A stretch of 61,484 bases of DNA, filler included, from Jimgerdemannia flammicorona (lineage: Eukaryota), in the NCBI GenBank assembly GCA_003990765.1. It is 2 parts of 2 records of this genome, joined end to end, with 100 filler letters (N's around TTAATTAATTAA, not from the genome) between each part and the next. Parts side by side here need not be neighbours in the genome. Positions count along the whole stretch, not along the records: positions 30,812 to 61,484 come from RBNJ01000431.1; 1 more part is not named here. One strand, written 5' to 3'. How positions within the stretch are numbered: the first letter of the stretch is position 1; each line of letters begins with the position of its first letter. A program made the translations under genes and the position numbers. Below the pieces are notes generated by a model. The model worked only from the letters and a program-made list of their open reading frames with translations, did not search any database and had not been told where the DNA came from. This document shows, piece after piece, positions 5,560 to 55,043 of this stretch.

Positions 5560-5705
5560 ATGGTTGTACAGGTTCAGGATGCTGGTATAATTCAGTGTTA
5601 TGTCAGAATACCAGTGCTGGCATTATTCAGTATTATCTCAGAATGCTGGTGTTGGTATTATTCAGTATTATCTCAGAATGCTGGTGCTGGCATTATTCAG
5701 TATAA
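5560..5705. repeat. ~30-bp tandem repeats in the family A LTR, upstream (element sense) of the TATAAATA box
   Basis: GAATGCTGGTGCTGGCATTATTCAGTATTA-like units; copy number differs between LTRs. Confidence 0.7.
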
Positions 5706-12775: not shown

Positions 12776-12895
12776 CTTGTCTTGAATTCTTGCAGGGGTG
12801 ACTCTTGTAGTCAGGGTAGTTTTTGTGGGGATTGTTCATTTTTTAGCTTAAAAGTGAGGGATTCATCTTGAATCACCAGCCAATAGGTACCAAGT

Positions 12896-14447: not shown

Positions 14448-14760
14448 TCTTCCTCCTGAATAAGGATCTTCTCAAGTATCCTTATTCATTGGTCCAGTTC
14501 TGAAAAATTTGCTGATCCCATAACCTCTGGCAAGGAGTCGAAAAGTGGTGTTTATGGGCTGACATCTTCTCTTTGTATTTTAGTGTGATGGTGAAGGGTC
14601 ACTCCCTTTATATAGAGCAAGGGCCTGATTCTGATCTTGACCAATCAGTTGATGGTTCGAACTCCTCTGACTTCAAAAGTCTCATAGATAAGTAGTTGCC
14701 AGTACTATATCCTTTAGAGAATGGTCCAGACAGATAGCCTGCTGGTCACGGGACATGCTG

Positions 14761-20026: not shown

Positions 20027-20121
20027 CTTATCTTGAATTCTTGCAGGGGTGACTCTTGTAGTCAGGGTAGTTATTGTGGGGGTTGTTCGTTTTTCAGCTT
20101 GAAAGTGAGGGATTCATCTTG

Positions 20122-20143
20122 AATCACCAGCCAATGGGCACCA
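20122..20143 (-). promoter_or_regulatory. Primer binding site of family A (TGGTGCCCATTGGCTGG...)
   Basis: TGG 3 nt from the LTR end, with the same site beside the middle LTR. Loosely resembles a tRNA-Gly(GCC) complement with a 2-nt bulge; tRNA identity is uncertain. Confidence 0.6.
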
Positions 20144-20146
20144 AGT

Positions 20147-21626
20147 TGTCATGTAGTGGTCGCTGAGTCCTTCAAATATACCAGATTCTCTTCAAGGTGT
20201 ATCTCTTAGACTAACTCAAGTTTTTTATAAGCAAGTTCTTGTTGGAGTACCTTCCCAAGGTCTTATAGTCCTCAAACTTCTTATCTTTAACTGTCTTGTT
20301 GTCGCTTAGATTGCTTGCAAGGAAGTGTGTAAGTGAAACCAGAACTGACTTTATTTCAGAGGAAATAAGAGGGGTATTTATACAAAATATAATTCAATGG
20401 TTACTAAGATATAAAGCTAAATATAAATTCCAATAACTAAAACTACTAAGTTCCAGGGCTGACATTATTTAGTATCACATCAAAATGCCAGTGCTGGCAT
20501 TATCCAGTATTACATAAGAATACTAGTGCTGGCATTATCCAGTATAACACAGAACTTAGAGCAGAAAGTTCAGGACCATGGGAGCTTCATCCTCATCATC
20601 ATCATCACTAAAGGAGATGAGATTCGCAAATTCATCATTTTCGCGTGCTTTGTTATGCATCTCACATATGTTGATGTTGCATGGGATGACATTATCACTG
20701 ATGACATCATCACATTTGGCTGTGGCAGGAAAATCGGGAATAAGATCTAGAGCTCTCCAGTTCTCTTTCACAAAATAGGAAACAAATGTGGGGTCTTGGG
20801 GAGGTCTAACCTGGATGCTTGGGCCTTGGAATACTGAGATTAATCCTTGCAGGAATTGGTCTGGATTGTCCTGAAGGATAGGGTGCCAGAAGTCTTCTAC
20901 TTCTTCGCTATTGAGAGTGATAGTGAACTGGACTTCTATAGCCACCCTGGCTTCTAGTACATTGATATGGTGGGATGATAGGTCTCTGAAATCTTAGACT
21001 CTAACATACTCCAAGTTGGGGATCGACCATGGTATATGCCTGAAGATCTGATGGATCTTCTTAGCTATCCTTATTTCATGTATATGTATCTATGGGAGTG
21101 GTATCTTATAGCTCTTGGGTGCTGGCCTGTGGGAACTCCCAGCAGAGGAGGTTTTCTATTTCATACTCCTGCCACATTTGGAGGCATTCGGTAGCAATAG
21201 TGATCCTTGTTTCCATTTTATGGTGGTAGAGAATGAAGTAATAAAGGTCTGCAGTACCCAGGTTGACACTAGGAGTCCTTCTTGAGTGGGTTCTCATGAC
21301 TCTTCTGATGTCTTGGAACATCCTTTCCTCGACTGAGATACCTTGGTAATTCCTTGACCTTGAGGTTTGGTGGGCAGCAGGCATTTTATTTGTGGTAAGT
21401 CTTTGAGCTATTTTGAGATTGGTGGTTCTTGTTGGTTGCTGTTACTGCAGTTCCTTGATCCTTCTTTTATATTCTTCAGGATGCTTGTGCTGTGGTCACA
21501 ATGACTCATGGTTGGTCATCATTGCTCATCTTGTATGCCATATGATCTTCTTGTGCTCCAATCTAGTGGCTTGCAAGGAAAGGCTATCTCCTATGCTAAT
21601 GTCATCATTCTGAGGTTACCATTACA
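20147..21626 (-). repeat. Family A LTR (5' copy)
   Basis: TGTCATGTAGTGG...CATTACA. Confidence 0.95.
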
Positions 21627-30999: not shown

Positions 31000-32640
31000 A
31001 AGTAAAACATTGACCCCTTTTGTCCCTCACTATATTTTTTCATTTGTTACCGAAGGTGCAGGAGCTGAAGTCAACACATCCACATCCAGAAAAAGGTGTT
31101 GCATAATTTCCAACGTCAGCAGTGTATCAACAGCTGTTGCATCTGCATCACAACGGGGCCTTAATTTGATCTTGTGCAACAAGCCCCTGTGAGAGGAATT
31201 TTAGATTTTGATAAGATAAAGCTGCGGTTCTGAATGCCTACCAGGGATGTAGACGATTCATTCCAAGAGGAATACGTAGATGCCACCTAGTGTACCTGGA
31301 TGGTGCAAGCGATTATGAGCTCGGAATGGCAACTTATGAGCAGGCGATGTTTTTCAAATGATTACACTTACTCAACATGCCTCCTACGGACGCCAGGGCG
31401 GATAGCATGGTCACAGACCTGTCCCGATAACTTTGTGAATTATTATGATACGCCAGATTGTTGGTAGGTCTATGAAGGCAAAACTTGAATGACCTACCTG
31501 ACCAGCCTGTTACTCCGTTTCAAATAGTCGGGTGTAATTGTAATTGGCTAATACCATCATAATTTTCGGGTAGTCCTGGGTAGTAAATTCCAACAAAGTA
31601 ATGGTGTCTCGTGGGATGAAAGGCATTCCCTATTTGAATGATATATATGTATGTTATAGCAGAGTAGGGTTTTAGTAAACGTGCTTATTCAAAACTACAT
31701 TAAAATGGTTATAGGAAGTATAAAAACTTACAATTCTGCTAGCCCAACTTTTTTCATTATCAATGTAATCTCATTCGATTGGACGAAAGTCGAACAAGTG
31801 CTTCTTCTGCGGCCTGATCAGCACTGGACGGAAGGAACGGGTTTGTTACACTTGCTAATCTAGATTTGTTATTATATATAATATTTGAGGCTAAGCACGG
31901 AAAAAGATGTGAGTTTCGAAAGTTCAAATCAGCGTTAAACACCATCCGTCTTCCTTCCCTTACCTGGGTCGAAGAGAAAAATGCGTATGCCACGAGGGCC
32001 GTATTGTTGAGTGCTTTGCCAGTTGTCGGATCTGTGAAATTCACGGTTAAATAGTAACTGGTAACGCTGGTATTGAACATAACGCCTGTAGGGCGGACGG
32101 CATAGCAGTGCGAACTATGGACTCCTGGTAGGTTTCCATTGACACTGAAAGGTAGTGATAAATGTGGGAATTCATTGGGGGTTTGGCTGTACCAATTTAC
32201 TTCGCTCTTGACGTTAAGGTAGGGGCAATCGAAGGTGAAGTCAAAGTCACCGAATCTTGAATTTACTGGACAGACGACGACATCTAGTACAAAACAAGAA
32301 AAAATGATGTTAGCACCACGCTGGAGATGATACACGAATGTGTTCAAAATGATAGAGTACCTAGAGCTTGAACGGACGTTACCCTGACGGCGGACGGCTC
32401 TATAGTCAATGTGCCCTTTGACCAATCTTCTACTACGGTGAGAATTGTTTCTAACCCTCCAAGAAAAAAGATTATCGATAAAACTATGCGCAATGAACGC
32501 ACGCTGCTGCCTTCGAAATTCTTGGGAGGGGTTTTTCCAGTTGTGGGCAGTTTTGACCTCGCTTATCTGAGGGGTACGAATTTCGATGGGGATCAACTCC
32601 AGGTGCAGGTGGTTTTGAAGTCGGACCACAATCCCATCGT
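31000..32640 (-). pseudogene. Multi-exon host gene, probably frameshifted; two-TM membrane protein with a large loop
   Basis: Intron 32284-32360 (GTACTC..GCTAAC..TAG) joins LRIVLSIIFFLGGLETILTVV...QAL to DVVVCP...; exon 32283-31964; later SALASVGG and GIYVFL.GMNRLHPW|G segments. CpG retained. Confidence 0.6.
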
Positions 32641-32801
32641 GCTTTCTTGAAGTTTGATCTATAGGTGCGTAGATATTCTTATTGTTTAAGGATGCAAAAT
32701 TTCCCTGCTTAAATTTGTGGTTTTGACAAATTCACTTGGCTCGGGACCATCCAGACCACCCGGAATTGGACTGGACTGCGAGCTGATATAGTTATGGGTA
32801 T

Positions 32802-33956: not shown

Positions 33957-35914
33957 CAGTTGGTCTGCCTTAGTATAGTTATTAGTTTGGTTATCTGTTT
34001 AGTCATCAGTTTGATATGTTGATTATTTTCTCACTTATATATATTCATCTATCTTAAATAATATATCTCCTTATCTATTTTATCTCATTTGTCTTATCTC
34101 ATTCATATCATCCTCCTCAGAGAATAAAATCTCTTTAATTCTAATAGTTGGCCAAATATATTATATATATTCTATCAGATTTATTTCAATAAAATCATAA
34201 AAATAATATGAAATTTATTTTATTCTGAAAGTATTATATTGCACAATTTGAACAGAATAATTAATGATTTCCATACAGAACCTAATTTGAATCTTTTGGT
34301 CAAGAAGATACTTTGTGTAAGAAGTAATCTTTCTATATATATATACTCCTTCTCTATTCTCCAGAATCCAAACTGAGATCTCATCGATATTATTAAGAGT
34401 ATTAAAATAGTCTATTATAGTTTTCTTTAAAGATTTGTAACCAAACTCAAAATCTCAATAGATCTCATAAGAGTATCTACTATTCTTAGTAATTCCAATT
34501 TATGTTTAGTAAAAAAAAATATAACTATCTTAAGTAATACTAGATTTAAATAAATAGATACATATATATTGTAACAAACCAAAACATACTATCTGAATTA
34601 TATCTTAACCAGATAATGTGAATAATTAGGCAAGATGATGTGAATAAACAGCATAGTAACTAGCAACCATTGCTATGGAAAACTGTATAAATAGCCAGAC
34701 ATATCAGAAAGGGTCTGTTTACCTGTACAGACTCTGTACATCTGCCATAAGTAGCAGATCTATAGTTAGCCACATAGTAACCAGATAGCAACCACAATGT
34801 ATAAATTACCCCAGAGACAAGAGTGAATAAACCTCAGTCCGAAATTAAATCCAAAAGCAAAAGACAAGTCTGCCTACCACACTTTGAGAAGAACTCTACA
34901 GCCACTGTTAGGAGATTGTGAGCATTGGTCCCCTTTTCCCACTCTGGTCCACTTTCTGATATAAAGAACAAGGCCAGATAAGCCTGAAGATTTGCCACCT
35001 AAGTTCAAAGAGAACTTTGCTGCCTTTTGAGTAATCTGCCACTTAAGAAATAAGCTACTATTTTCAAGTTATTCTCTGCCTTCTCAAGAAAGCCACCTTG
35101 CTCAAGTCAGTTTCTGATACAACTTTGCAGTAGAGCCAGTCTATGACATAACCCTGCACAAATGAAGCCAGTCTTTGATGTAACTTTGCCAAGAGACCCT
35201 TTCCCAAAGAATGCCACCAGTTGTTTATATTTCCAGAAGAGCCTGATCTGGAAGAACCTGTACCATCTGAGTTAATTCCCAGTTGAAGCTGCCATTTTCA
35301 AGAAGTCTGCCGATTTAGGAGAATCCACATCATCCACTGTTTTCAAGTTATCCACATTTCCAGAAGACCCATGCCATCTGAGTAGTATTCTCAGTTGAAG
35401 CTGAACCTGCAACATCTGAGTTATTTGTTGTTCCTAGTGAACTCGTTATAGAAGAATCTATGCCATACAATTCCCAGTGAGCCAAATCAAGTTATCCACC
35501 AAATTATCAGAACATCCACATATGTAAGGAACCCACCATGCTACATAGAGATTATCACACAGAGATCGTCGCACTATACAGAGATCATTATACCAAGACC
35601 GTCATCCAGAAATTGTACACTTTTGGAAACCACTCATACTATATACAAATTCTGCCATTCCCAGTTGACCCAAGAAGGAAACCCATTCACATACACACAA
35701 ATCACCACTACACCCAGAGAACTATCCCAATTAGGAAATCAATATACAAATTGCTTGCAGATATCTAGTTTTGACTATTATACTGCTAAACACCAAGGAC
35801 CTCAGGAATTTTAGAACATTTTGTTGCTTTTTGACAAAGTAACTGGGGGTTCAAGCCAAACTACATCAACTCCCAACCTTGTAATTTGCCTCCATTGAGC
35901 CGGCATGTTACATT

Positions 35915-35931
35915 TGGGGGCTCAACTGAGA
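35915..35931 (+). promoter_or_regulatory. tRNA-Pro-type primer binding site
   Basis: TGGGGGCTCAACTGAGA versus canonical tRNA-Pro PBS TGGGGGCTCGTCCGGGA; most differences are transitions. Confidence 0.7.
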
Positions 35932-35989
35932 AGATTTCAAAATTGATGTGACTTTTCAGCTCACAAGAACCCACAGTTAAACTGGATAC

Positions 35990-38900
35990 ATTTGATACAA
36001 TACTAATCTCTACCACTATAGGAGAACTAGTCATTACTAGTATTTGGACAGAAAGAGAAGTAATTACCTCAAGACTTGCCAACTACCCAGTATCAGAAGG
36101 ATCCCAATCAGAAGCAGGAGGCAGTATAGCCCAAAATCCCCAACCAGACCAACCAGATCAACCAGATCAACCAGACAATACAGGCAGCCCTGTTAGAGAT
36201 TTTGGAGAACTCACACAAGAACTAGAAGACCTTATCACATGGACCCAATACTTTACAGCCAGACACCCCACACCAGTCCCACCAATCTCACCAATAGAAC
36301 CCCTACCACAACCCCTTGCAGAATCAGAAGTAGTTCCTACAAGAATACCTAGGCCTATTCCACCCCAGTCAAGGACCAGAACACCATCTTCAAGATACCC
36401 AAGCACCCCCATCTCTAGTGACAGTTCAGAAAGTGAATCAGAATCAGAATCCAAACTTGAACCAGAATCAGAAGAAAGTGATAATAAAATGGCCACCTTA
36501 TTGCCAACTTTTGCAGGATACCCAAAAGAAGACCCCAGAGAATTCCTTGATAGAATTGAAGGAATTGCAGCCTTGAGAAATCTCTCAGATGAAAGAAAAA
36601 TCACCATCTACAAAACTCAGCTCAGAGAACCAGCTAGAGGAATTTTCCATCGAACAGCAAACAACTGAGATTCAGAACTAGCAAGACAGATACAAGCAGC
36701 AATGTCTGATGAGCTAGAATATGAAGCCATAGTTCACTGGCTCATTGAAAAATATGCAGGAAATGAAACCTGCTATAAGGCTCAGGAATCCATTATAGGA
36801 ATGAAGATGAATCTTGGAGAATCACCTAGAGCCTTCTTCACAAGAATCCAGAAGAGAATGCATTTAGCCAGGTTCAATGCCACCAATCAAGACATCATAG
36901 GTCCAATGACCTTCATGAATGGAATTCTTCTGAATATTGCCCAGTATGTCTGCACCCTAGGCATCAGAAGGTCTGAAGAGCAAGTAGATGCAGCCCAAGG
37001 ATTCTTCAATGTCAGACAAGGAACTACCTGGAGTAATCATAATAAGAAGGAAGATAAAGAAGATATCCTGGTCAAAGCCCTGCAAGGACTCCTTCAAGGA
37101 CAAGAAAGATCTGAGGAAAGAAGGCCAGCCAAGAAGAAAAGAAGAACAGAAGTGAAATCCAAGACCTCAGCTCCAAGTTAGACCAATTGGTTGGATAGAT
37201 TGAAAAACTCACTACATGTGAAAATTGGGACTACCAAAACAACAAAAGGTATCAACCACAGAGGAGCCAAGGTTATCCACCAAGAGATAACAGGAATTAC
37301 CAGTAAGAAGAAAGAAGGTACCCTGTTTGAGACAGAGCCCAAGTCTAATACTTCCACTGTAGATAATTTGGACACTATGCCACTGAATGTAACAACAAAA
37401 GAAGTGACTGAAGGGACTCAGAACCACCAAAACAAAGGAATGACACTCAGTACAAGAAGACTGAAGCCCATCCTGTTGAAGATTTTGAAGAAGTAAGCAA
37501 CAGTGAAGACTACAGTAACCTAGACTTATACCCCACTAGAGTTACATCCTGGAAAACAGTCTATCCAGCAGAGAAAAGAAAGAGACCCATAGGAAGACCA
37601 TCCAGGAACATCAGCAGAAGAATTATCCAAGAAGAGGATGAAGAACATAAGGAGGAACAAGTAGAAACACCTCCCCGAACTCCCTCACCTTTTGTCGCTG
37701 AGACAAATGAGTTGCTACCAGAAGATGAAAAAATGGAACAAGAAGAACAGGAACCTGCTGCTCCAAGGCCTAAGAAGAAGTACACTCTGAAGACCATGCC
37801 TAGAGACATTTACAATGAAGTCTGGCAGAAGATTCAAGAAGCCAAGATGGAAGTCTCTCTCCTGCAGTTCTTGCAACTGACACCAGCTGGAGTCCAAAAC
37901 AAATTGCTGAGAACCACCAGGTCTAGCACTGGCCAAGTTCCAATCCCACAGTAAGAACCAACTTCCATCCTTGTCCAAGCAGCCGAAAGACATGTCAGCA
38001 CCTACTTACATGGAGATATTGGAGGACAAAAAGCAAAAATCCTCATAGACACAGAAGCAGCTATCTGTGTCATTGCCAAACGATTCTTGGACACTCTCCA
38101 ATAGCCCATTGATGGACCATCCAACCTTAGCATCATAGTAGCAGATGGAGCCCAAACTCAACCCCTTGGAGAAGTATGAAATATCACTATTTCTCTTGGA
38201 CACATTCAGTTCTCCATCCCCAAAGCTGTTGTCACTGAAGCTGTCACCTATGACATGATTCTTGGCACCAACTGAATGAAGGAAATGAATGCAGTTGTTG
38301 ATATTAGCTAATAAGTACTCAAGTTTGATTACCAAGGTAAGAAGTATAGGGTTAAGGTGACCAGCTATGAGCAATCAAAGAAGAAGAAGGTCACTATTCA
38401 GGAAGAGTATGCCAGTAGTGAAGAATCCACCACAGAAGAAGAGGAAGAATCTGAAGATGGAAATGACCCCAGACTCAATCCCCAAATCAATCTGGTAAAT
38501 AACTGACCAGAAGATAATGTGTGAGCCAAGAACACTATCCCTATTACTATTGGAGCTATTACAGGAGAAGCCAAAGGGTGCCCTATATGCCTCAAGAGAC
38601 ACAAGTGTCCTGAGCACTCTTCCAAGATCATGGGAACAAGGAAATCACCTGGCACAGCCTGCCTGAAATGCAGAAGGAAGAAGAAGAAATGCAGACATAT
38701 TCCAGAAACACCTGCAACTGAAGCTGCAGAAGTACAAGCAATTTGGGGTCAAGAATTATCTGAGGAAGAAGAAACTTCTGACCAAGAAGTTCCTGAACAA
38801 GAAGTACCTGATGAAGAAGAGGTCCCCGAACTCATTCCCTGGGATGACCCTTACTGGATACCACCTGAAGACAATGACCCTTGGAATACAGAAGAATGAC

Positions 38901-41900
38901 CCAGTACAATCACCATTATTACTAAGAAAGAAACCCACCAAGAGAAAGCTTTTCAGCTAGGAAGATGTCTACATCAAATGATCTTCCACTCTCCCCAAGA
39001 CTACTGCTATCAGTGTCACCTGTTGGACTAATAAGAAAGACAGAGACCCCAGAAACCAGAACCCCCAACTATCCTTGCACACTCTACCACCTTTCAAGAA
39101 GTCACCACAAGGTTACAAAGTCAATTTAGGGGACAAAGCTTCTTTACCTGAACAAAAATATACTCTTTGTCTACCCTTCCCCCAACCTATGATCAAGATG
39201 GGTACTGATTCCCAAGACAATAAGAGATAAATAGCTGGGAACATCATTTTCAGGCAATGGGATATTGCAACCATAGGAGACACCCTGACTGCCAAGACTG
39301 CAAACATCAGAAAATTCACCTCAGTCATGATGTTGCAGTGCACACTTTGAAGAAGAGAGATAACTGAAGCCAGATCCAAAAAAGCCAGATTTGAAAAAGC
39401 CAGACCAAGAAGCCCAGAAAAAGAATCCTCAAGATCTATGATCTGGGAGAAGACATCCTAGCTCTCATCAGACATGCAACTCACCAAGGATGGGCAGAAG
39501 ATGCCACCAACTTCATGGAAGCCCTTGACCCTACAGGAAGGAGGAGAATCAATTATCTCCGAGACCCCTCTACTGGAGCCAGATGGCCACACCTCAACCT
39601 TAGAGCTTGGAGGCTTTCTGCTAGTGGAGCTTCAGCCTTAGGAAAGCCTGAACTCAGCAAGGACATTGCCCAGTATGCCCTGCTGCACCCCAAGGCCAAA
39701 CCCCCGACCAAAGCCCACCCAGAGGATATAGGATATGATCTTCACAGTCTGGAGGATGAATCTATCAAGCCTGGAAAAACCTTCATGGTCAGAACTGGAT
39801 TAGCCATGCAGCCACCCCAAGGAGCTTATATTCAACTGACCTCAAGGTCCAAACTTGCCAGACAAGGGATAACTGTAGAAGGAGGAACTATTGACCCTGA
39901 ATATACAGGCAAAATCAAGATTATCCTACACAACAGCAGTGCAGAATAGCACCGAATCATTAGAGAACAGAAGATTGCCCAAGCAGTCTTCATGAAGGTC
40001 AAGACCCTACAGTTACAGAAAGTCTCTGAACTAACTGAAGGAACAAAACAAGCCAAGAGATTTGGAAGTTCAGACAGGAAGGAGGTACATCTCCTTCAAG
40101 TCAACCACCTTAAGAGGAATGTTCCCCAGCAAGTATACCAGCAACCAGTCAGACTACATAAGAATCTCATCCTGGAGCCTGGAGAACAAACTACCTTCGC
40201 AATCTTTACACCACCTGATTTCAGGAACCTTTTCTTTGAACCCAAGGAAGATATCCCATACCTGGACATAGAGGGACATACATTCTCTGATAAGATGAAT
40301 CCAGTACACTCCCAAGCAACCAACCAAAGTTGGGAGACCATCATCTTGCTGAAAGGAACCATCATAGGACATCTGGTGCCTTTCTCAACCATACTCATAG
40401 GGAAGTTTATGAACTAAACCTATTGGGAAATGGCAAAAGATCCCAGAAGAAAGGAAAGGCCTCTCTGTGACCCAGGAGACAGTGAAGCCTTCCACCAACA
40501 TTAGAGAAGAATTGACACCTCAACAACAGCAACAATTAGTAGAACTTCTCAACAAATATCAAGATATCTTCACCACTGACTATAGCAACCTGCCATACAA
40601 CTCATCATATCACCACAGCATAAATACAGGAAGTGCAACACCTATCTGGCAGAAACCCTATAGAATACCCCATTACTTGAAAACATTCAAAAAAGAGCAC
40701 ATTCAAGAACTCTTAGACAATAGAATCATCCGACCCTCCACTAGTCCCTGGGCCAGCCCTATACTTATTGTACCAAAGAAAGGAGGAAGGAGACTCTGTG
40801 TAGATTACAGGAAACTCAATTCAGTCACTGAGAAGGATGCTTATTTTGTCCAGAATCAATGACCTTTTGGATCAGTTACAGGATACCAGATACTTCAGTA
40901 GTATGCACCTCTTTGCAGGATTCCATGAGATCCCCATGGACCCCAAGGACATTCAAAAGACAGCCTTTCTTGCTCTAGGAAAACTGTTTGAATACCTCTG
41001 AATGCCCTTCGGACTCTGCAATGTACCCCACCACCTTTCAGAGGATTATGAATTCAGTCTATGCCCCCTTGATCTACCACTGCCTGATTGTATACATAGA
41101 TGATTCCAACATCTATTCAGCAAATTTTAAAGAACACCTGCACCACCTAGAGGAATTCTTCAAGCTCACCCACAAGAATCACTTGAGATTAAATGCAAAG
41201 AAATGCTATTTTGGGAAACAGAAACTTAAATTCCTGAGATTCATGGTTTCAAAAGAAGGAACTCACATAGACCTAAAGAAAACTGAGAAGATCAACAATT
41301 GGCCAGTACCTAAGACTCCAAAAGAAACACTATCATTCCTGATGCTAGTATCCTACTACAGAAGATTCATCAAGGATTTTGCCCAAATCACTGCCCTAAT
41401 TCGAATCCTTCTCAAGAAAGAAATACCATTCAAATGGACAGAACTACAGAAAAAAGCCTTCAGAGAACTCAAGAACTACATGACCACAGCACCAATCCTT
41501 ATGTGCCCCAATCTACAGAAGCTATTTATCTTGTATACAGATGCTTCCAAAAATAGCCTAAGAGCAGTTCTAGCCCAAGAAGGACCTGACCAACAGCACC
41601 ATATGATAGCTTATGTAAGCAGAACTACCAATCAGCAGCAGATGAACTATGGTAGCACCAAACTGGAATGCCTTGCAGTCATATGGGCAGTCACCCTGTT
41701 CAAGCATTACCTCATAGGAAAAAGGTTCACTCTGATCACAGACCATGCAGCCCTCAAATAGCTATTCAACCACAAGGAACCCACCAGAATCCTAGCCTGC
41801 TGGATCCTTATCCTTCAGGATTACAAAATCACCATTATCTACAAAGTAGGGAAAGCTCACAAAAATGTTGATGTACTTTCCTGCCAGCCCCAATGAACTA

Positions 41901-42960
41901 GAAGAAGGGTATCCCGAGGAACTATACTCTAAAGGAAGCTTCTCAGACCATCAAGACACAAGAAGATCTCATCCATAAAGAACATTAGAAAGCCCATCAA
42001 GGACAGACAAGTACAGAAGATAAGATTCGAAAACTGTATCAACACTGGCCTCACCTCAGAATTCAAGTCCAAGACATCATTCAGAAATATGACACTTGCC
42101 AGAAGTACCAAGGAAAGAATAATTATCAAGTCCCTCTGCAACTGATTCCCCCACCCACTCACATCTTTCAAAGATGGGGAGTAGATGTAATTGGACCTCT
42201 ACCAGTTATACTAAGAAGAAAAAAATATATTCTTATATTTATAGAACATCTGACCAAGTGGCCCAAGGCTTTCCCAATGGAAATTGCAGATGCCTTAACC
42301 ATTGTAGGCCTCCTCTATAGACTCACACTCAGATATGGACCCCCAGAAGAACTTATCTCTAACCAAGGCACAGAATTCATCAACAACATAATCATAAGTT
42401 ATGCCCAAATTCACAAGATCCACCTCAAAAGGACTACATCATACTACTCCCAGACCAATGGCATGACAGAGAGAATGAACCAGACCATCAAGAAAGGACT
42501 TGCCCAAGTCAATCCTACTAATTGGGACCTCTGCTTACCTGAGATCCTATGGGAAATTCAGAACACCCCTGCCACCTCCATTAAACAAAAGCCATTTGAA
42601 ATGATGTTTGTTAAGAGAACCAGAACTGCTGACCATGAGAATCTTGGAGACCTTCTCAAGAAGGCAGAACAGTTACGTAATTAAGCCCAAGGACAGATTA
42701 TCAAAGCTCAGGAAAGACAAAAGAAGTACTATAACCAAAAACAGAAGGATCAGGAGATCAAGATTGGAGATCAAGTCCTAGTTTGGAGAAGCATAATTGA
42801 AACAAACTTTGCCGCCAAACTAGAACCAAAATGGGAAGGACCTTATCTTGTACACAACATCAGAGGAACTAGTATCTATTTAAGAAACATGGATGGATGA
42901 ACTCTGAGAACACCAGTACATATCAATTACCTCAAACTATATTTCCCCTCTACACTATGA
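35990..42960 (+). pseudogene. Family B gag-pol (gag, CCHC, PR, Cys/His region, dUTPase, RT, RNase H, IN)
   Basis: [58 protein letters not shown], ends VHINYLKLYFPSTL*. Confidence 0.93.
39660..40075 (+). CDS. dUTPase domain in family B pol
   Basis: DIGYDL, SRSKLA, GGTIDPEYTGKI, KIAQAV, AKRFGSSD. Confidence 0.9.
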
Positions 42961-43472
42961 GCCAAAGGATTGATCAGCACCTCCAGACATTGGTCCTCAG
43001 CTCCTTCTAAGCTCTACCAGTCCCTCTACCTCAATTCAACCAAGCCAATAGAAGCCCCCTTCAAAGGATCCAAGCTCATCAAGAAAATCTCACCCTGGCC
43101 AGATGTCTACTACAAGTCCACTAACTGCAGGCCTATTATGCAATTGGTGAACAATTGCAGAACCTTCCAGCCCCAGAATAGACCTACATCAGGAACACCA
43201 CAGGTCTGACCAGAAGAGACACTACTGCTACAGACAGACTATACACTATTTACAAATGAAATGTCACAGCCCTGATACAGACACAATTCTCCCTGAATGA
43301 TATTCAAGGAATGAACCCTATTACCTATTTGAGCATCATCAACTCTGTCGAAATCCTATTCCCTGAAGAAGAAGAAGAGCCCATAGAATAGAGTGACCCC
43401 AGTACAGATAATGAAGATGATGGAATAGGTATAGATGCAGAAGCAGCCTATGCTTATTGAGATGATGACTGA
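42957..43472 (+). pseudogene. Extra 172-codon ORF between integrase and the 3' LTR of family B
   Basis: ATG overlaps the integrase TGA (ATGA). Single frame MSQRIDQHLQ...AYYAIGEQL...DRLYTIY...acidic tail, with only TAA/TAG/TGA stops revertible by one transition. Confidence 0.7.
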
Positions 43473-45511
43473 AGAATAGTCTGAGACAGACTACCCTTCA
43501 GTGGGGGCTGATGTGATAAACCAAAATATACTACCCAAATTATATCTTAACCAGATGACACAAACAATTAGGCAAGATGATGTGAACATACAGTATAGTA
43601 ACCAACAACCATTGCTGTAGAAAACTATATAAATAGTCAGATATACCAGAAAGGGTCTGTTTACCTATACAGACTCTGTATACCATACAGACTCTATATA
43701 CTGTACAGGTCCTGTACACCATACAAACTCTGTACATCTGCCATAAGTAGCAGATCTATAGTTAGTCACATAGTAATCAGATAGCAACCACAATATATAA
43801 ATTACCCCAGAGATAAGAGTGAATAAACCTCAGTCCAAAATTGAATCCAAAAGCAAAAGACAAGTCTGCCTACCATACTTCGAGAGGAACTCTACAGCTA
43901 CTGTTAGGAGATTGTGAGCATTGGTCCCCTTTTCCCACTCCAGTCTACTTTCTGATATAAAGAACAAGTTTGTTTTTAGTTCACTTGCCAGATAAGTCTG
44001 AAGATTTGCCACCTAAGTTCAAGGAGAACTTTGCTGCCTTTTGAGTAACCCACCACTTAAGAAATAAGCTGCTGTTTCCAAGTTATTCTCTACCTTCCCA
44101 AGAAAGCTGCCTTGCTTAAGTCAGTTTCTGATGCAACTTCACAGTAGAGCTAGTCTATGATGTAACTCTGTACAAATAAAGTCAGTCTTTGACATAACTT
44201 TACCAAGAGACCCTTTCCCAAAGAATACTACCAGTTGTTCGTATTCCCAGAAGAGCCCGATCTGGAAGAACCCATGCCATCCGAGTTAATTCTCAGTTAA
44301 AGCTGCCGTTTTCGAGAAGCTTGCCAATTCAGGAGAATCCATGTCATCTGCCATTTTCAAGTTATCTGTATTCCCAGAAGACCTGTACCATCCAAGTAGT
44401 ATTCCCAGTTGAAGCTGAACCTGCAACATCTGAGTTATTTATTGTTCCTAATGAACCTATTATAGAAGAATCTATGCCATACAATTTCCAGTGAGCCAAA
44501 TCAAGTTATCTGCCAAATTATCAGAATGTCTGCATAAGGAACTTGCTATGCTATACAGAGATCATTACACAGAGATTATTATGCTACACAGAGATCATCA
44601 TACCAAGACCATCACTCAGAAATCATACACTTTTGGAAACCACTTGCACTATATATAAATTCTGCTATTCCCAGTTGACCCAAGAAGGAAACTCATTCAC
44701 ATATACACAAATCGCTGCTACACTCAGAGAACTGTCCCAATTAGGAAATCAATATACAAATCGCTCGCAGATATCCAGTTTTGACTATTATACTACTAAA
44801 CACCAAGGACCTCAGGAATCTTAGAATATTTTATTGCTTTTTGACAAAGTAACTGTGGGCTCAAGTCAAACTACATTAACCCCTAACCTTGTAATTTGCC
44901 TCCATTGAGCTGGCACATTACAATATATAATTAGATTATTTTATATATAAATATAAATAATTAAACAAATATATTAAATAAAACCAATCTTTTAATAGTA
45001 TTAATGAAAGATTAATATAAATACAAAAGCTAATCTTTAGTTTTGAAGATCTTGAGCTATATATAAGTAGAATAATATTAATATTATTGAATTCAGATAG
45101 TTCAAAGAGTGCTATCAAAAACTATTAATAGAATAAAATATATATTAAAAATAAATCAAAATCAAAATAAATAATAATAATAATAATATATCTTATATCT
45201 TATATAATAAGAGATCAGATATCTCTATTTATATTATATTCAAACCAAAGATCACCTTTTTCATCAGTATGAGTCTTTATAATCAACTACTTTTGAGATC
45301 CTAAATATTATTTAAAAATAATTAAATAAAAATATATTAATAACTTTAAATATTTAATATAAAATAAATAAATAATATATTATTTATAATATTTATTACT
45401 TACTTGTTATTAATATTCTTAACACATTTCAGAAGAGAATCTCCATCTTGAAATATATGTAGAATAATTGTAACCTGATCATATTTATATTCTGTAAATA
45501 CTATATGTATA

Positions 45512-46351: not shown

Positions 46352-49300
46352 TGTAATAGTTCTAGTTTTTTTTAAGAAAAAGTGGCTAAATCTGGAAGTT
46401 CTAGTTGGCCTAAAGTAGCTCAAAGAGATATTTAAAGGTTCAAGTATTCTTAAAGAATTTCTGAGAGAAAATATTCTGAGCTTTATTCAGGCAGAGAATA
46501 AGGATATTTATACATGATCTGAAAGAAAGATCTGAAAGGATCTTGGAAAGAAAGAGAAATGCCAAGAAATAGGTTCTCAGCAAAGCTGACTAATACTATT
46601 CTACAATATTCTGAAAGGTTCTATAATTAGCTAAGACAAGATGCTTGGCACCAAGAAAAGACAAGAATGTTCTAGTAATGTCTGGACATTGAGAGAAGGT
46701 TTCTAAGCAAGTAGAAGGTGATAGAATATAGTAGAATATTCAAGAAATAATAAGAAAATACTAACTAAAAGATATGAAAATATACTAAGACTAAATATAA
46801 TTGTAAAATCATTACATTTATCCCTCCTTAAGAACCAATATCCTCATTGAGTCCTTAGATAACACAAGACTAGATATATTTAACTAAAATTTCTCAAACT
46901 TGAATCAGCACATTGGTAGAGATTGGCCATCCTTATATAGGGAAGAGGACCTATTACTAGACTAACCAACTGAGAGGGATTTGAACCCAGCTAGTAGCTT
47001 CATTTCAGTAGACTTCTTGTTTATTAAATATTCTGCTGGTTCTGGGATCCCAAAGTAAACTTTCAATACATAAGGCACTGGTCATTGCTGTAGGTTATTT
47101 ATAATCCAAAGAAGTCACTATAGGGATTGGGTAATGTATTTTGCCTCAAAGTCTTGAACTAGATCTTGAGAGTTCTTGAGGTTGACCAGTGGTTCTCAGG
47201 TAGCATCATATTCAGAATAACCCATCTACTTGACTAAGTATTCAGGACAGTGGTAGCAGATTTGTTTGTCAAGGATTTTCTCAGCTTTATACTTAATATA
47301 GTCTTCAATAATCACAGTGGCAGAAGGCTTAGGAATTCGACCAGAGTAGGGTGGTGACTGATTCCAGGTCTTGAGGTGTGATACATGAAAGACTAGGTGT
47401 ACTCTCATGGTTTCAGGTAGCTTGAGATGGTAGGAGGATGCAGAGACTTATTCAGTAATCTTGAAAGGTCCAATATACTTGAGTTGGAACTTGTTCAAAG
47501 AGTGGTTGACTTGAGATTATATCTTGAGATTCTCAGTGGACAATAGGACTTGATCTCCAATAGTGTAAGTAATATTATAGCATTTCTTGTCAGTATACTT
47601 GGCTTGATGCTGTTAAGCCTTCTGAAGATTCATGGTAGCAATTTTGAATAGTTTGTCCATTTTGTCTATAAGGTTATTGGTAGTTGGGACTTATATTTGA
47701 CTAGTTTTCTTAAAAGGAAATTGACTTGCAGGAGTCTTGGGATCTTGACCATAGAGTAACCAGAAAGGGGAAAGACCAGTAGATGATTGAATAGCATTAT
47801 TATATACAAACTCCACATAAGTCAGATAGATGTCCCAATCATCTTGCTTATAAGAAATATAGTTTTCTAAGCATTTGTTCTAGAGTTCTGTTCATGTGCT
47901 CGGTTTATCCATTAGTTTATAGGTGAAAGATAGTAGACATAGCCAATTGGGTTCCCAGAGTCTTGAAGAGAGTTTGCCAGAAGTAACTAGTGAACTTTGG
48001 GTCACAATTGCTGACAATTACTCATAGTAGACCATAGTGACAGAAGATAGACTTGAACACTCCATCTTTCTCTGGTACCACTCAGGTTACACAATCTTTG
48101 GAAGGCACTCATGACATCGTTTTTGGAGTAAAGTGACTAACAATATGACAACTGATAGGCAACCTGAGGTGCGTACTGGGTAGGGCAGCCCAAGTGCTTT
48201 CGATTGACAGCAAGTTGAGAGGGGCCCAGGCCTGGGGGGGAGTATAAGGGGACTGCTGGTGGGTGGATGAGGACAGGGTGGAGGTACTGGTGGAAGTCTA
48301 GGGTCTGGGAGGGTGAGCTTTGTAGAGACAGTAAAGGAGAGACAGCAGACATTGGGGCTGGAGGGCTGGCTGAGGAGGGGTAAGGAGAATGAGAAGGCAG
48401 TGGGGCGGGGGGGAGTAGCTCTTGGAAGAGAAGGCAGTGAAGCTGGGGGAGTAGTGGCTGGGGGGAGTGTGACTGCTGATGGTGATGGGACTGCTAATCT
48501 GGAAAAAAATCCAGATATGATGGTTGTTGGCAAGGCTGAGCAGCTGGGGCTTGGAAGACAAGGAGATTTAACAGATGGCATGATAGGCCTGGCAGTGGCC
48601 CCATTACTCAAGAAATCGATCTCAGCATTCGTGGTTACACTGTGCTTCCAGGGCTTAGCAGTGACAGCGAAAATGGTACTGGGGCTTATTGCTAAGCAGG
48701 TGGCAGGAGTGGCTTCAGTGAAATTTCTGAAGGGACTAGAGGATGTGGAGGTGGGTTTTGAGGAGGCTGAACTACTGGAGGAGGCACTGAAGGTTGGGTT
48801 GGTGGTTGGGGAGGTGTGTGTGCTGATGGCGAGGTGTTTGAAATGGGATCTGAGGGTGGTCCAACTGCTGGTGAAAGGAGTACCCATGGTGACAGCAATG
48901 GAGACGAGAAAGAGAGTGGAGGATGTCATGGTGGAGTATGGAGAGGTGGTAGATATCGGATTCAGGGTCTGGGAAGGGACCACGCTCAGGACTGGGGACG
49001 TGGATATGAGAATTCAGCTGGCTGGGAAAGAGGCTACTAGGAAGGCGAGAGATTGGCCTTCAGTGATAGTTTGGGGAGCAATCCTGTGCAAGGTGATGAG
49101 GGTGAAAGGAAGTGAAGAAGAGAAAGAGGATTTATTGGAAGCACTGGAGGAACTGGATGGGGCTGTGGAGCAGCGAGCTAAGGCCTGGAAGAATTTCGAG
49201 GAGTCGATGCACCTGGAGATAGTGGGTGGAAAGAGGATTCAAGTGGACAGGGTGTAGTGGGAAAGGGCTCAGGGGTGGAAGAGACAGAAGGATCTGCTGG

Positions 49301-52300
49301 CTAAACTGGGGGGTGGACCACAGAAGGATACAAACAAGAAGACAGGTGTGGAAGGGGCTGGAGCGAGCGTCTGGGCTGGTGAGAGAAGTGGGGATGGTGG
49401 GGTAGAGGCAGGGAAGGCAAAGGAGGTGAAGGTTAGTGACCCATATGCTGATGGCACCTCGGAGGTTTGGGATAAAGTCTGGGAGAACTCCCCCACTCCT
49501 TCTCCTCTTATCAGGCATGACCCAGCTTCCAGAAACAAGATTGGGGAGGACGTGACAATGCTGGAGACCCAGCAGGTGAAATTCAGCATTCCGGAGATAA
49601 TGAATGGGGATCGAGTAGTGGAGGCTGGGGAGGAGGAACTGGTGGATGTCCTGGAGGTGTGGGATGAGGATGCGAGTGCCGGGGCTGACACCATGATGCT
49701 GGATGGAGGGAGGCTGGCGACCCCTAGTGGGAAGGAGGTGGGGAACCTACTTTGGATGTGCTGGATGATAAATAACCTGGCGGTGGAAGAGTTGGGGGAG
49801 GTGGACTTGTGTGGAATGAGTGATGAGCACTGGATGAGAATTTTGCAGGGGGAAGGAGTGGCATTGGCGCTGAAGGTGGAAATTCTTGTGATGTATCTGG
49901 AGGAGGAAGAGTATGAGGTGGATAAGGAGCAGGAGGCAGAGATGGTGGTTATCGCTGGGGAGAGGGCTGAGTACTGTTGGAACAAGCATCATGGGTTGCA
50001 GCTCTGGCAGGAGGCTTGCATCGAGTACAGAGAGGAGTTTGAGGAGAAGGCTGATGAGGAGATGAATGAGCTGTTGGCTGGATTGGAGGCTCAGAGGGCT
50101 GAAGAGGAGGAGGTGATGGTAGAACATAATCTGGACATGGCATGAGAGGAGATGAGTATGGAGCAGTAGAGATCGAATGAGAACAAATAGTATTTCATTA
50201 TGAACAGTACAACCAACATTTTTTCTTTGAACATGAATGGGCTAAGGGGTGCAGTTAGACGTAGGAACATTTTTCTTTGACTGAAGGGATTGGAGGCCGG
50301 TCTCTTTCTCTTGCAGGATGTCAGGTGTGAGGATGATTCTGATAGGATGGAATGGACAAAGGAATGAGGTGGCACAGCGATTTGGAACAGTAAGGTCGGG
50401 ATTCTGGTTTGGAAAGGCAGAGGGGAGATACAGGATATGAGGAGCTGGGGGGAGAGACTGGTCTGAGGTGAGTGGATTCATGCAAGTTGGGAGCCAGTCA
50501 TAGTTGGCTCCTATTACTACCCTGCTGTATGGGGGGAGTGTGTGGATTGGGTGAAAGGGCTCCAGGAGAGTGGGATTCTTGCTAAGGCTGGGATAGATAT
50601 GCTTGGAGGAGACTTCAATATAGTTCAGGATATACAGTTGGATAGAACTGATAGAGGATGGGGTGCTGAGAGCAGGAGTGGGGGGCTGGTGATGTGGGAG
50701 GAAGTCAAAAGGCTTGGAGCACTGGTGGATACTGGTAGGGAGTACTGGGAGGACAGGAGGGTATATACATATTGGGCTGGGGGCCTGGGGACAAGGATTG
50801 ACTGGATTCTGATGGCCAACTGTTGGGGCCGCGATGTTTGGAAGGTGTTAGAGGTGGAATGGTGTCTGTGGTCAGATTACTGGGGCATTTTGGAACAGGG
50901 GTGTTTTGGGGGAAGTAGTGATTGGCCTGGACATTGGCACCTAAATTTCTCCTTGATGGATGATGAGTTCTGGTGGGAGGAGTAGGCGAAAGACATTTAG
51001 CTGAAGGTAGAGAACTGGTAGCAGGAAGGGGCCCCAATTGGGGTTTGGTGGGTGAGGATGAAAGAGATGGCCAGGATGTACTGGAGTGAGGCTGACAGAG
51101 AGGCTGGGAGGCAGCAGAGGCAGAGAGTGCATTGGGCTTCTACTAGATTGGCTAGGCTCCTGGAGGAATGGGCAAGTCTGGTAGTAGTGGCGAAAGAAGA
51201 AGATTGGAGAATATTGTGGGTAAAGATGGAGGTTGAGGAACTACAATAGGTGCTGCGGGAAGAGAAAGAGTCAAGGATGCAAGGCCTGGTGGCACGGCTT
51301 CGTTGGCAGGGGCTGGAGGAAGGAGAGAGGTCTTCCAAGTTTCTCACGAAGACACTTCGAGCAAGAAGGGTACAGCAGCAGTGGGAAGGGGTACTTGACT
51401 CGAATGGAGTACTAGTGCATGGTGTACAGGATATTCTTGGAATGCTGAAGGAGCAATGGAGTGGATTGTGGAGTGAGGAGGAGGGTGGGGCAGATGCTAC
51501 AGCCATTGACTGAATATTAGAAGATTGGTACCCACCAGAAGCAGAGGGACTAGATGACCTGGTGATGCCTGTAAAGGAGGATAAGATCTGCCAGGTTCTT
51601 GCCATGACAGCCTCGGGTACGGCACCTGGGGAGGATGGCCTACCCTGGGACTTCTGGAAGCAAATGGTTGGAGTCCCAGGCATATTGGGGAAGATGATAG
51701 CACTGTGTGATTTTATATTGCAGTCAGGGAGATGGGTGGGGGAGCAGGACCTTGGGCTGGTGATGCTGCTTTATAAGAACAAAGGAAGGCGAGAGGATTG
51801 GAAGAACTGGTGGTCAATAATATTGCTAGATATGGACCACAAGTTGGTAACTAAGGTGGTGATCGTGAGGCTACAGAAGGTAGCCCAGCAAATTGTTGGT
51901 GTTGAGCAGAGGGGCTTTGTAGGGGGTCGGCTGATTAGAGATGGCACAGCCTGGGTACATGGAGTTATTGAAGGTGCTAGAGCCTGTGGACTGGATGGGC
52001 ATCTTGTCTTCTTGGACCAGGAGAAGGCTTATGACCAAGTGCAGAGAGTCTGGCTGGCGAAAGTATTAGATAGAATTGGGGTTCCAGTTCTATTTCAGTC
52101 AGTGATGGTCAGCCTACTAGAAGGGAGTAGGGCTGCACTCTTGTGTAATGGGCATAGAGGGGTAATGTTCCCTCTGGATAGGGGAGTACCCCAGGGGGAC
52201 CCATTGTCTCCCATTTTGTATGCTCTTTCTTTGGAACCTCTAATGGATAGAATTCGGTAGAGGATAGTGGGGCTCTCTATCTATGGAGTTGGCTGGAAAG

Positions 52301-55043
52301 TTGGAGCCTTTGCGGATGACATGGTGGTTGGTTTGGGAGTGATTGATGATATCAAGGAGCTCAAGAAGACAGTGGAGTGGTATGAGGAGAACTCTGGGGC
52401 AATGCTGAATTGGTACAAGTGTGAAACAATGGTGCTGGACAATGGTCTGGTGGGAGGAGAGGTTATTGGAACAATTGTCCCCACTGGCGAGGCGGTGCAG
52501 TACTTGGGCATCTATCTGTCGGTTTATGGGTCTGTTCTGCCCAGGCTATGGTGGGAGCAGAGGGTTGGAATTTGGGAGGAGGACCTGTGGGGTTGGGGGG
52601 GAAGACACTTCTCTCTGGCAGGAAGGATCTCAATTTTGAATGTATACTAGCTGCCAAAGCTGTGGTATTTGGCTTATCATCTGGACTTCCCAGCCTGGGT
52701 GGTGAAGAGATTGGTGAAGGTGGCCAAGGGATGGATTTGGGCTAGCAGACAGAGTCAGATTGGTTGAGAGACTTTGTCTCTACCAGTGGCGAGAGGTGGT
52801 CTTGGGCTGGTGGACTTCCCCAAATGACTACACTGCTTGAGGGCATGGTGGCTTAAGAGGGCAGTGGAGTTGCGTGGAGGGGATTGGGTTCCCCTGCTGC
52901 AGAAGGTCTGGGAGAGGCAGTTATCACCAAGAGGCTTGACTGGTGATCTTCTTTCATTAGTTGGACATCAGAACACTGCACAACTGTGATATAAAGGTTT
53001 CTGGTGGGGGATAGCAGAGGGGGCACACTGTATTGGTATTTGCTGGCAAGGGAATGAGGGAGAGAGGGCTTGGGGCCTGGTGATGTGGAGATGGGATAGC
53101 ATCCTACTGGGCAGAGTACCTTTACCTGAGTTCGACATTGGTGAGGGAGTAGAATGCCAAAGGGGGCCAGGCCAGGATCTGTGGTCTAGTGGTTGGCAAG
53201 GAGTGGGAATTGGAGAGGAGTGGGACTAGTATGGGGTTTGGACCTGGAGCACCGCAGTGAAAAAGTGGATGCCGCTGAAGTACTGGGTGGTCTAGTGGTG
53301 CGTGCTGAGGAGAAATGTGATGCTTAACTTCCACTCAGGACACCTTGTCATAGGGGACTGCTTTGACTGCGAGGAGTGCCATAATGTAGGGTAGGAAGGA
53401 GAATTTGTATAGATGCCAGAACATTGGCTAGGGGAGTATGAGGTGTTGGGAGACTTTTGGCAGGCCATTGGGGACTGCTTGGGGGTGAGGCATAGGGGTG
53501 ATGTTGTATGGGAGAGGTGGGAGGACCTGAGGGATTGACTGATAGGTGGAGTAGGGGTGGAGTGGATTACTTTAGGCTGGGCATTGGCTATTTGGGTTGG
53601 GCTGGCCAGTCACTGGCTATTTGTATTTGAGGAGGAGAGGCGACAGAGCTTGGGGAGCTGGTTATCATGGTGGCAGTGCCTTATGGAGGACACCTTGACA
53701 GGCTGGTGGCTTGGTTGGGGGCTGCAGGGGGGTCGGAGGCACCACTTGGTGGTGAAAATATGTGGTCAGAGTGGTGGGAGAGTTGGAGTCATTGGTGAGA
53801 GGGTGGTCTTTATATGGAAAGAGGTGAGGAGGGGCCCCCCTATGGGGATCGGATAGTGGGTGGTGATATTGTATACTTATTCATAAACTGGTAATAAAGA
53901 TGGAGTCCAAGTGACTATAAAAAAAAAAAAAAAAAAAAAAAAGAAGATGGACTTGAAGAAGATTCTTGCAATCTCAAGTACAGTAGCATTGGTAGTAGTT
54001 GGTTCAGCAACTATAGTCTTGATCAGGTGATTAATAAATATGACAATAGCATCAGTACCAGATTGAGTTCATGGTAGTTGAGTTACAAAGTCATGGTGAC
54101 TTGCTCAAAATTCTTAGTAGAAATTAGCAGTAGTTGTAGTAAACTGGTAGGTACTTGGTTGGTAGACTTATTGTACTGATATAGATCACAGCTGGCAATA
54201 TAGTTCTTGATTTCCTTGACCATATTTGGCCAATAGTAGCAGTGTTGGATGTTCTTAAAAGTCTTCTCAATTCCCAGATGACCAGTGAGAGAGGAATCAT
54301 AATGTTCTTGCAAAATCTTGTAGCATAGGTTTATGTTTTTAGATAGGTAGACTTGGTCTTGATGATAGATCAGGTTGTTCTCAACAGTATATATATCCTT
54401 GAGTTTGTTCAAGAAAACTCTAGTGGCAACTGTGTCTTCTTTATAAGCTTGCCTAATTTGGTCTAGGAATTCTGATATCAAGGTGGCTTGTATGATTGTG
54501 GCGAGATCTGGGTATCTTGATAAGGCATCTGATACTACAAGTATCTTGCCAGGCTTATAGATGATCATTGGGTTGAAGGTTTGAAGCTTGAGGCTCCACT
54601 TGGCTTGTAGATGTGACAGAGTAGGTTGGGTGTTAATGTACTTGAGAGATTGATGATCAGTAATGACATTAAACTCAACACCTTCTAGATAGCATTATTA
54701 GTGATCTAGTGCATGTATTATTGCTAGTAGTTCCTTCTCATGAGTAGCTAGCTTTTATTCAGCTAAGGCTAGCTTGTGGGACTCAAAAGCAATAGAGTAA
54801 TATTCTTTGTCATCATCTTGTGACAGAACTGCTCCAATGGCAAAATTTGATGCATTAGTAGTAACTATGAATTTTAGGCCTTGATCTGCATTATGTAGGA
54901 CTGAAGTATGGGTCAGGCAGTTTTGAGTTCTTGAAAGGCTTGTTGACAGAAGAGGTCCCAGGTGTAGGATATATAGTGATCTGAGTGTAGGGCCTTCCTT
55001 ATGAGGTTAGTCAGTAGCTTGGCAATACCAGAGAAGTTTCTGA
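46352..55043 (-). mobile_element. Family C chromovirus (3' LTR 46352-46816, chromodomain, integrase split by a LINE, RNase H, end of RT)
   Basis: VHLVFHVSHLK, YKAEKILD...EYLVK.MGY chromodomain, GHLGIEKT...YYWP, IYKPGK...DALSR. Confidence 0.92.
48058..53941 (+). mobile_element. L1/Tx1-like LINE copy 2, full length (ORF1 48145-50145, ORF2 50200-53856)
   Basis: 16-bp TSD AGAAGAT(A/G)GACTTGAA at 48042-48057 and 53942-53957; AATAAA and poly(A); APE and RT motifs. Confidence 0.95.

Follow-up and report, generated by a model that had tools for sequence, protein, structure and literature searches.

A decayed third gene with a probable start on the integrase stop codon in a dUTPase-bearing Ty3/gypsy element of Jimgerdemannia flammicorona

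Additional genes of long terminal repeat (LTR) retrotransposons are raw material for retrovirus-like accessory functions, and very few have been described in fungi. In the parts of the literature covered here, fungal Gypsy elements are drawn with an additional open reading frame (ORF) of unknown function, labelled 'add. ORF' (Novikova et al. 2010, PMC2864245), and the Botrytis elements Boty/BcGypsy1 carry a gene named brtn (PMC8365987), which is called antisense in the title of a reference cited there (Zhao et al. 2011). Together with the env-like ORFs of Athila-type plant elements, these frames are the closest counterparts of the gene considered here, ORF3 at positions 42957-43472 (plus strand) in a stretch of 61,484 nucleotides (filler included) from Jimgerdemannia flammicorona (GenBank assembly GCA_003990765.1), hereafter the window. 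ORF3 belongs to a Ty3/gypsy element termed family B, and its copy in the window is a decayed version of an accessory gene of 171-172 codons with its terminator, a TGA, at 43470-43472. As far as the sources covered describe them, the known additional ORFs of Ty3/gypsy elements are likewise third frames beside gag and pol with a lineage-restricted occurrence. ORF3 differs from brtn in lying on the sense strand, brtn being antisense by the cited title, from the Athila-type ORFs in having neither a membrane segment nor envelope features, and from all of them in that its start overlaps the integrase stop and in that it lacks relatives beyond the small family to which it belongs. LTR retrotransposons are already known to carry additional ORFs, and ORF3, an orphan coupled to the integrase stop, is a variant of these.

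Elements carrying a dUTPase have been described from fungi as well. In PosPlaTy3-5 of Postia placenta, the dUTPase is located between protease (PR) and reverse transcriptase (RT), and dUTPase elements of Phanerochaete chrysosporium and Tuber melanosporum are also named (PMC2864245). The two dUTPase-bearing families in the window, A and B, resemble these elements in having the dUTPase 5' of RT. They differ in their nearest named RT relatives, which for family B come from Rhizopus and Rhizophagus (about 47-49% identical, against up to 77-87% for unnamed proteins in the database) and not from basidiomycetes, and in the absence of a chromodomain, which was found neither after the integrase in family A or B (read-through translations, no Chromo match at E<=1) nor in 88 ORFs scanned. 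An integrase-coupled gene is not mentioned in the passages covered of that paper.

The arrangement at the start of ORF3 also has described counterparts. Stop-start reinitiation at AUGA or UAAUG after long ORFs is known from caliciviruses and influenza B virus, which use a TURBS (termination upstream ribosome-binding site), and at UAAUG from the non-LTR retrotransposon SART1 (PMC10275272, PMC5972666), while AUGA termination-reinitiation has been reported for fungal victoriviruses. The retrotransposon cases named in the covered parts of these two papers are non-LTR elements only, and a literature search brought up no ORF3 of an LTR retrotransposon made by reinitiation, as judged by title or abstract. 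ORF3 shares with the calicivirus, influenza B, SART1 and victorivirus cases, as far as covered, an AUGA-type overlap at the close of a long preceding ORF, towards the 3' end of the RNA. Its junction makes family B a concrete candidate among LTR elements for termination-reinitiation.

That ORF3 is a gene is indicated by its relatives. When the read-through translation of the window copy (X at stops) was searched by word index against 5.8 billion proteins, five relatives of 72-79% identity were retrieved, two of which, P0123 (171 aa) and P0124 (172 aa), are complete (72% identity, 99% coverage) and three partial. Profile searching with HMMER across all 1.84 billion representatives recovered five true relatives, P0126 once more and P0134-P0137, the latter four sharing 39-68% identity with P0123, and one further match, a spurious repeat protein (E=2e-4). 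In addition, a metagenome scan yielded one contig of 1569 nt, L001, containing the integrase end and the first 118 ORF3 codons. Over these 118 codons, window and L001 differ at 32 first, 17 second and 64 third codon positions. The ratio of nonsynonymous to synonymous differences (pN/pS), which is based on uncorrected proportions with saturated synonymous sites, amounts to 0.24 in the ORF3 frame and to 0.18 in the integrase, whereas the two alternative frames of ORF3 give 0.97 and 1.73. At non-synonymous sites, ORF3 changes about twice as fast as the integrase (pN of 0.181 vs 0.093). Alignment-based searches revealed no relative, with two alignments in viral contigs and one of them in genome contigs.

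Judged from these sequence comparisons, ORF3 is very probably a real gene under purifying selection, and family B possesses in it a genuine third (accessory) gene in the env position. An accessory ORF had been proposed at this place by an earlier, sequence-only reading of the window, of which the gene itself and the env position stand, whereas the frame is not open in the window copy, being interrupted by six internal stops. That reading had made its proposal dependent on the frame being kept in other copies, which is what the intact relatives and the pN/pS value indicate. The six stops, along with the lack of a match to known families, would also suit a non-coding spacer between integrase and LTR that displays a frame by chance. 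Relatives that are 25-50% diverged nevertheless keep intact ORFs of 171-172 codons, the low pN/pS is confined to one frame, and the stops are private to the window copy; a chance frame is already contradicted and has next to no probability left. ORF3 represents an orphan gene that appears clearly kept by selection, with its start locked on the integrase stop across diverged copies.

The decay of the window copy can be followed at single positions. Internal stops occupy codons 18, 56, 75, 101, 145 and 168, the natural terminator being codon 172, and the integrase frame is likewise broken by TAG and TGA stops, including a premature TGA at 42898-42900. The peptides LQAYYAIGEQL and DRLYTIY as well as the acidic tail, all quoted by the sequence-only reading, are present in the frame from 42957 to the TGA at 43470-43472; the quoted stretch begins past the second internal stop and spans four more. 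Where the window copy has stop codons, intact proteins carry Gln, Arg/Trp/Gln or Trp. Seven sequencing runs, none of them RNA, were found to contain small shares (0.05-0.15) of this sequence. Contigs from four soil or other runs (likeness of at least 80%; 398 pieces in run X1) revealed many related copies, and nearly every contig covering five of the six stop positions has C or G there. At 43008, 43122 and 43179, a T of the window stands against C in nearly all other sequences, and at 43390 and 43460 an A stands against G; the sixth position is outside the rows shown. One contig of 485 nt spans 42952-43436 without a gap. ORF3 is real as a gene and dead in the copy at 42957-43472, which was killed by transition mutations. 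The same type of change prevails among the repeats of the window, as transitions account for 156 of 158 mismatches between the family B LTRs, for 546 of 572 between the internal copies of family A (6769-12314 vs 14448-19997) and for 169 of 192 and 124 of 138 in the family A LTR comparisons. The mutated context is mainly CpA/TpG, followed by CpC/GpG, and the CpG observed/expected ratio is 0.21 over the whole window. This hypermutation looks like repeat-directed cytosine deamination as in repeat-induced point mutation (RIP-like), unlike ordinary drift. The value of ORF3 thus lies in family B as a whole and not in the dead copy of the window.

At the junction, the ATG at 42957-42959 overlaps the TGA at 42958-42960 that closes the integrase frame (ending in NYLKLYFPSTL), an overlap that the sequence-only reading had described correctly. 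The shared ATGA at 42957-42960 (plus strand) places the ORF3 start codon on the integrase stop, with ORF3 in the -1 frame relative to the integrase. In L001, the integrase TGA overlaps the ORF3 ATG too (junction ...CTACCATGACTC..., L001 1216-1219). Residue 2 of the protein is Asn, Thr or Ser in ten of ten N-termini, namely Asn or Thr in the eight database proteins, Ser (AGC) in the window and Thr (ACT) in L001. Since Asn and Thr codons begin with A and the Ser codon of the window is AGC, ATGA can be deduced for all ten N-termini. ORF3 consequently appears to have its start locked onto the integrase stop across diverged copies, and the ATGA methionine is probably the true start; seven of the eight database proteins with an N-terminus begin there. 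Upstream of the junction, at 42702-42880, the integrase genes of window and L001 agree more often at third codon positions (identity of 0.65-0.90 vs about 0.45-0.65 further upstream), which might hint at a possible cis element, as far as a comparison of two sequences can indicate. The only contig joint found connects 42731 with 42814, in a single contig per run in two runs, and its ends, TA..CC, are not intron-like. As a separate observation, GGGAAG at 42833-42838 can pair with YTTCCC at 42942-42947 in both window and L001; the pairing lacks covariation, and both segments are constrained as integrase codons.

The protein encoded by ORF3 has 171-172 aa and a pI of 4.5-4.7. Its first approximately 135 residues are predicted to be helical, and an all-helical fold is obtained with AlphaFold2 at low confidence, while the final 50 residues or so sum to a net charge of -16 to -19. 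Within the acidic tail (about 35 residues), two tryptophans are conserved and the C-terminus reads WDDD. The ESM Atlas model of P0123 has a pTM of 0.68, and its structural neighbours in the Atlas, helical parts of sensor kinases, reach TM values of 0.34-0.37, which is under the same-fold level. One env feature is shared by ORF3, i.e. its position between integrase and 3' LTR. An envelope protein of the errantivirus or Athila type was considered and rejected, as the ORF3 protein has no signal peptide, no hydrophobic or membrane segment (maximum 19-residue Kyte-Doolittle mean of 0.94-1.14) and no match to a glycoprotein family. Because signal peptide and membrane segment are missing, the product is predicted to be an intracellular accessory protein and not an envelope. 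It may serve as a helper that binds the integrase or host chromatin or transcription factors via its acidic, aromatic tail, which is a guess. By the searches made, ORF3 appears to be an orphan with sequence relatives only within its own small family. The sequence-only reading had pointed to abundant hypothetical proteins of Glomeromycotina; this link found no support, as the exhaustive profile search gave five relatives of the same family plus the spurious match, and the Atlas gave no family. Partners of the ORF3 protein could reveal how a gypsy element devoid of a chromodomain deals with its host.

As to expression, the preferred and most likely route, put forward tentatively, is the translation of ORF3 from full-length gag-pol RNA by coupled termination-reinitiation. 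Ribosomes finishing pol would restart at the overlapping AUG (AUGA, three bases being common to AUG and the integrase UGA), so that ORF3 protein would be made in small amounts proportional to Pol. ATGA is the stop/start overlap typical of coupled termination-reinitiation cassettes and is read in window and L001 and implied in the eight database N-termini. Retroviruses and env-bearing LTR elements usually express their 3' ORFs from subgenomic RNA, and ORF3 could accordingly be a real gene expressed from an RNA of its own, either spliced as for the env of gypsy and Athila or initiated at an internal promoter, with ATGA reflecting genome compaction. The raised third-position identity at 42702-42880 could then mark an acceptor or promoter, and an A is found at position -3 of the ORF3 ATG in both window and L001. 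By eye, however, neither of the two sequences has an AG dinucleotide from the pyrimidine run up to the ATG, and the exact ATGA is kept, with residue 2 limited to Asn, Thr or Ser, across copies of only 63% protein identity. A subgenomic RNA is hence regarded as rather unlikely, if worth keeping in mind. The -1 frame of ORF3 relative to the integrase suggests yet another route, in which ORF3 forms a C-terminal extension of Pol via -1 frameshifting near the integrase end or else starts at the in-frame ATG at 42831 and overlaps the integrase. No conserved -1 slippery heptamer was found: the sole X_XXY_YYZ in the last 180 nt is TTTCCCC at 42942, which is not present in L001, and TTTCCCC is not known as an efficient slip site. 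The ATG at 42831 is forced by conserved Lys-Trp codons of the integrase, an ORF3-frame stop 54 codons upstream is shared by window and L001, and the preponderance of database proteins starting at the ATGA methionine also disagrees with a fusion or an upstream start. What speaks for such a start is P0126 together with the upstream stops discussed below; altogether, fusion or upstream start is improbable.

Several observations weigh against termination-reinitiation at ATGA or limit what can be said of the gene. The junction has been observed as DNA in two sequences only, window and L001, and both are decayed. In P0126, the ORF3 frame is open for about 41-42 codons 5' of the ATGA methionine (42831-42956), with its start at the ATG about 41 codons upstream (42831). 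Window and L001 each have one stop in this frame between 42831 and 42956, in each case at a Gln codon of the others. Since these stops sit on Gln codons, an upstream start, a fusion or an ancestrally open overlap is conceivable. In calicivirus and influenza B TURBS, according to the parts of the sources covered, a ribosome-binding structure lies upstream, whereas the consensus fold of the two sequences at the ORF3 junction is weak (-19 kcal/mol over 191 nt). No covariation supports a long-range helix near ATGA in the two-sequence fold, and neither a convincing conserved RNA structure nor an 18S-complementary element was found beside ATGA, the host 18S rRNA sequence not being part of the comparison. 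A TGGGA located 125 nt upstream of ATGA is forced by conserved Trp-Glu codons of the integrase. In eukaryotes, moreover, ribosomes that have translated a very long ORF generally reinitiate inefficiently. On the protein side, the AlphaFold2 model of ORF3 is poor (pLDDT of 52), no Pfam match reaches the curated cut-off in a search to E<=10 (best E=0.06, unrelated), and a PDB sequence profile search at E<=10 gave nothing meaningful. With all this taken into account, the explanation as a whole, i.e. a dead copy of a real, ATGA-coupled ORF3 that encodes an accessory protein and is proposed to be translated by termination-reinitiation, is held to be slightly better than an even bet.

A second unusual ORF is found in family A, another Ty3/gypsy element with dUTPase, which lies on the minus strand with the order PR, dUTPase, RT. 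Family A forms a tandem array LTR-internal-LTR-internal-LTR at 5386-21626 (minus strand), in which the middle LTR is common to two internal regions; the LTRs extend over about 5386-6768, 13044-14447 and 20295-21626. Each of them contains a copy of the ORF on the minus strand, as detected by tblastn: the first at 5717-6526 (with P0130 as query, E of 2.5e-122), which is the copy that had been compared with ORF3 by the sequence-only reading, the second at 13378-14205, and the third, with a frameshift, at 20559-21384. The peptides MWQEYEIGN and AKKIHQIF quoted for it beforehand are present in all three LTRs, on the minus strand. Like ORF3, this ORF is a real gene; it comprises 271 codons in intact relatives and has six relatives in the database (P0128-P0133). 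It lies wholly inside the LTR, which begins with TGTAATGG behind the polypurine tract, and starts 242 nt from the LTR start. Because it is wholly inside the LTR, each element has the ORF twice, and the genomic RNA has it at its 3' end. The protein is rich in Arg at the N-terminus and acidic at the C-terminus, where it ends in LNFLL, and it belongs to no known family; Pfam and PDB profile searches, both at E<=10, gave nothing meaningful, and Atlas feature matches of P0128 with scores of 0.85-0.86 are leads only. In retroviruses, accessory genes located in or across U3 of the LTR are known with sag of mouse mammary tumour virus (MMTV) and nef of human immunodeficiency virus (HIV). The family A ORF is similar to sag and nef in its LTR position and has no sequence relation to either, whereas ORF3 of family B is located outside the LTR.

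The sequence-only reading had gone on to suggest that ORF3 and the family A LTR protein are homologous, which the comparisons do not bear out. BLASTP of the two proteins gives E=6.1, and hhalign, the profile alignment by which the suggestion could be examined, returns a probability of 0.3% with a first profile, which rises to 0.6% (P=0.09) when a richer profile is used. In this second alignment, the register is the one proposed earlier, aligning residues 25-100 of the family B protein with 38-114 of the family A protein over 73 columns at 19% identity. Its score of 17.5 is practically equalled by reversed controls (17.3 and 16.9), and of 150 column shuffles, 9 score as high. tblastn at E<=10 yields no cross-match between ORF3 and the family A ORF, and proteins of the family A type are absent among the six matches of the exhaustive HMMER profile search. 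Three predicted helices coincide under the hhalign register (34-68, 72-81 and 86-101 in family B with 47-83, 89-95 and 100-113 in family A), which is a weak sign of kinship. Structural models do not help any further, with a pLDDT of 36 for the AlphaFold2 model of the family A ORF and both models of too low quality for folds to be compared. Identity between families A and B is only 34% in the integrase and 41% in RT/RNase H, and ORF3 evolves at about twice the rate of the integrase; for this reason, a lack of signal would be expected even for homologous proteins. No counterpart of the family A ORF is apparent in the family B LTR, as judged by the lack of a long conserved frame, of Pfam matches and of tblastn matches with P0130 or P0128. 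Homology of ORF3 and the family A LTR ORF is therefore considered doubtful, although the idea keeps some weight.

A more far-reaching proposal joins both genes. Accordingly, a clade of dUTPase gypsy elements in soil fungi would possess one ancestral accessory gene 3' of the integrase. Family B would express it through termination-reinitiation at AUGA once the entire gag-pol ORF has been read, which would make it the first LTR retrotransposon with this mode of expression. In family A, the gene would have come to lie in U3 through a displacement of the polypurine tract; every LTR would then contain a copy, solo LTRs included. The acidic, Trp-bearing tail would tether the integration complex to host chromatin or a transcription factor in place of a chromodomain. 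The move of the gene into the LTR in family A had been suggested by the sequence-only reading, and we infer no more for it than a conceivable step; the combined proposal is a long shot.

The window as a whole is a nest of retroelements comprising family A, family B and three LINE-like copies. By BLAST and Pfam, family B is the second dUTPase-bearing Ty3/gypsy element and extends from LTR to LTR over 34570-44922 (plus strand, as are all its parts). Initial BLAST limits of its LTRs were 34726-35912 and 43722-44922; local alignment places the true repeat starts at 34570 (TGTAAC...) and, matching it, at 43512 (TGTGAT...), giving a 5' LTR at 34570-35912 and a 3' LTR at 43512-44922. The two LTRs share 88% identity and end in TG and CA. 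About 45 extra nt at 43665-43721 in the 3' LTR are absent from the 5' LTR, and a TATAAATAG motif at 43631-43639, about 120 nt into the repeat, is kept in both LTRs (5' equivalent near 34689). The internal region 5' of ORF3 (35913-42956) consists of a gag-like part, dUTPase, RT/RNase H and integrase and contains many stops. The dUTPase at 39395-39946 is located upstream of RT, RT/RNase H is found at 40979-41758 (Pfam RVT_1/RT_RNaseH), and the integrase at 41989-42960 includes a zinc-binding domain, the core and a C-terminal GPY/F-like module (Pfam rve and Integrase_H2C2 at 41989-42681). The Pfam-based order RT, RNase H, integrase is that of Ty3/gypsy (Metaviridae). Directly 5' of the 3' LTR, a purine-rich stretch AGTGGGGGCTGA is read at 43500-43511, for which a role as polypurine tract is suggested by its position. 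With the LTR start corrected to 43512, the ORF3 stop is 39 nt away from the 3' LTR, and ORF3 consequently occupies the entire space between integrase and polypurine tract.

The remaining features of the window lie outside the two gypsy families. A 323-codon open frame without a Pfam match is located at 31763-32731 (minus strand), between a LINE-like copy and family B. The three LINE-like copies, each with endonuclease and RT, are found at 25329-30342, 48448-53460 and 55100-60700 (plus strand) and show about 71-74% identity to one another. Finally, 2090-2615 is occupied by tandem repeats spaced at 15 and 48 nt, the minus-strand frames of which weakly match extensin-like (proline-rich) Pfam entries.

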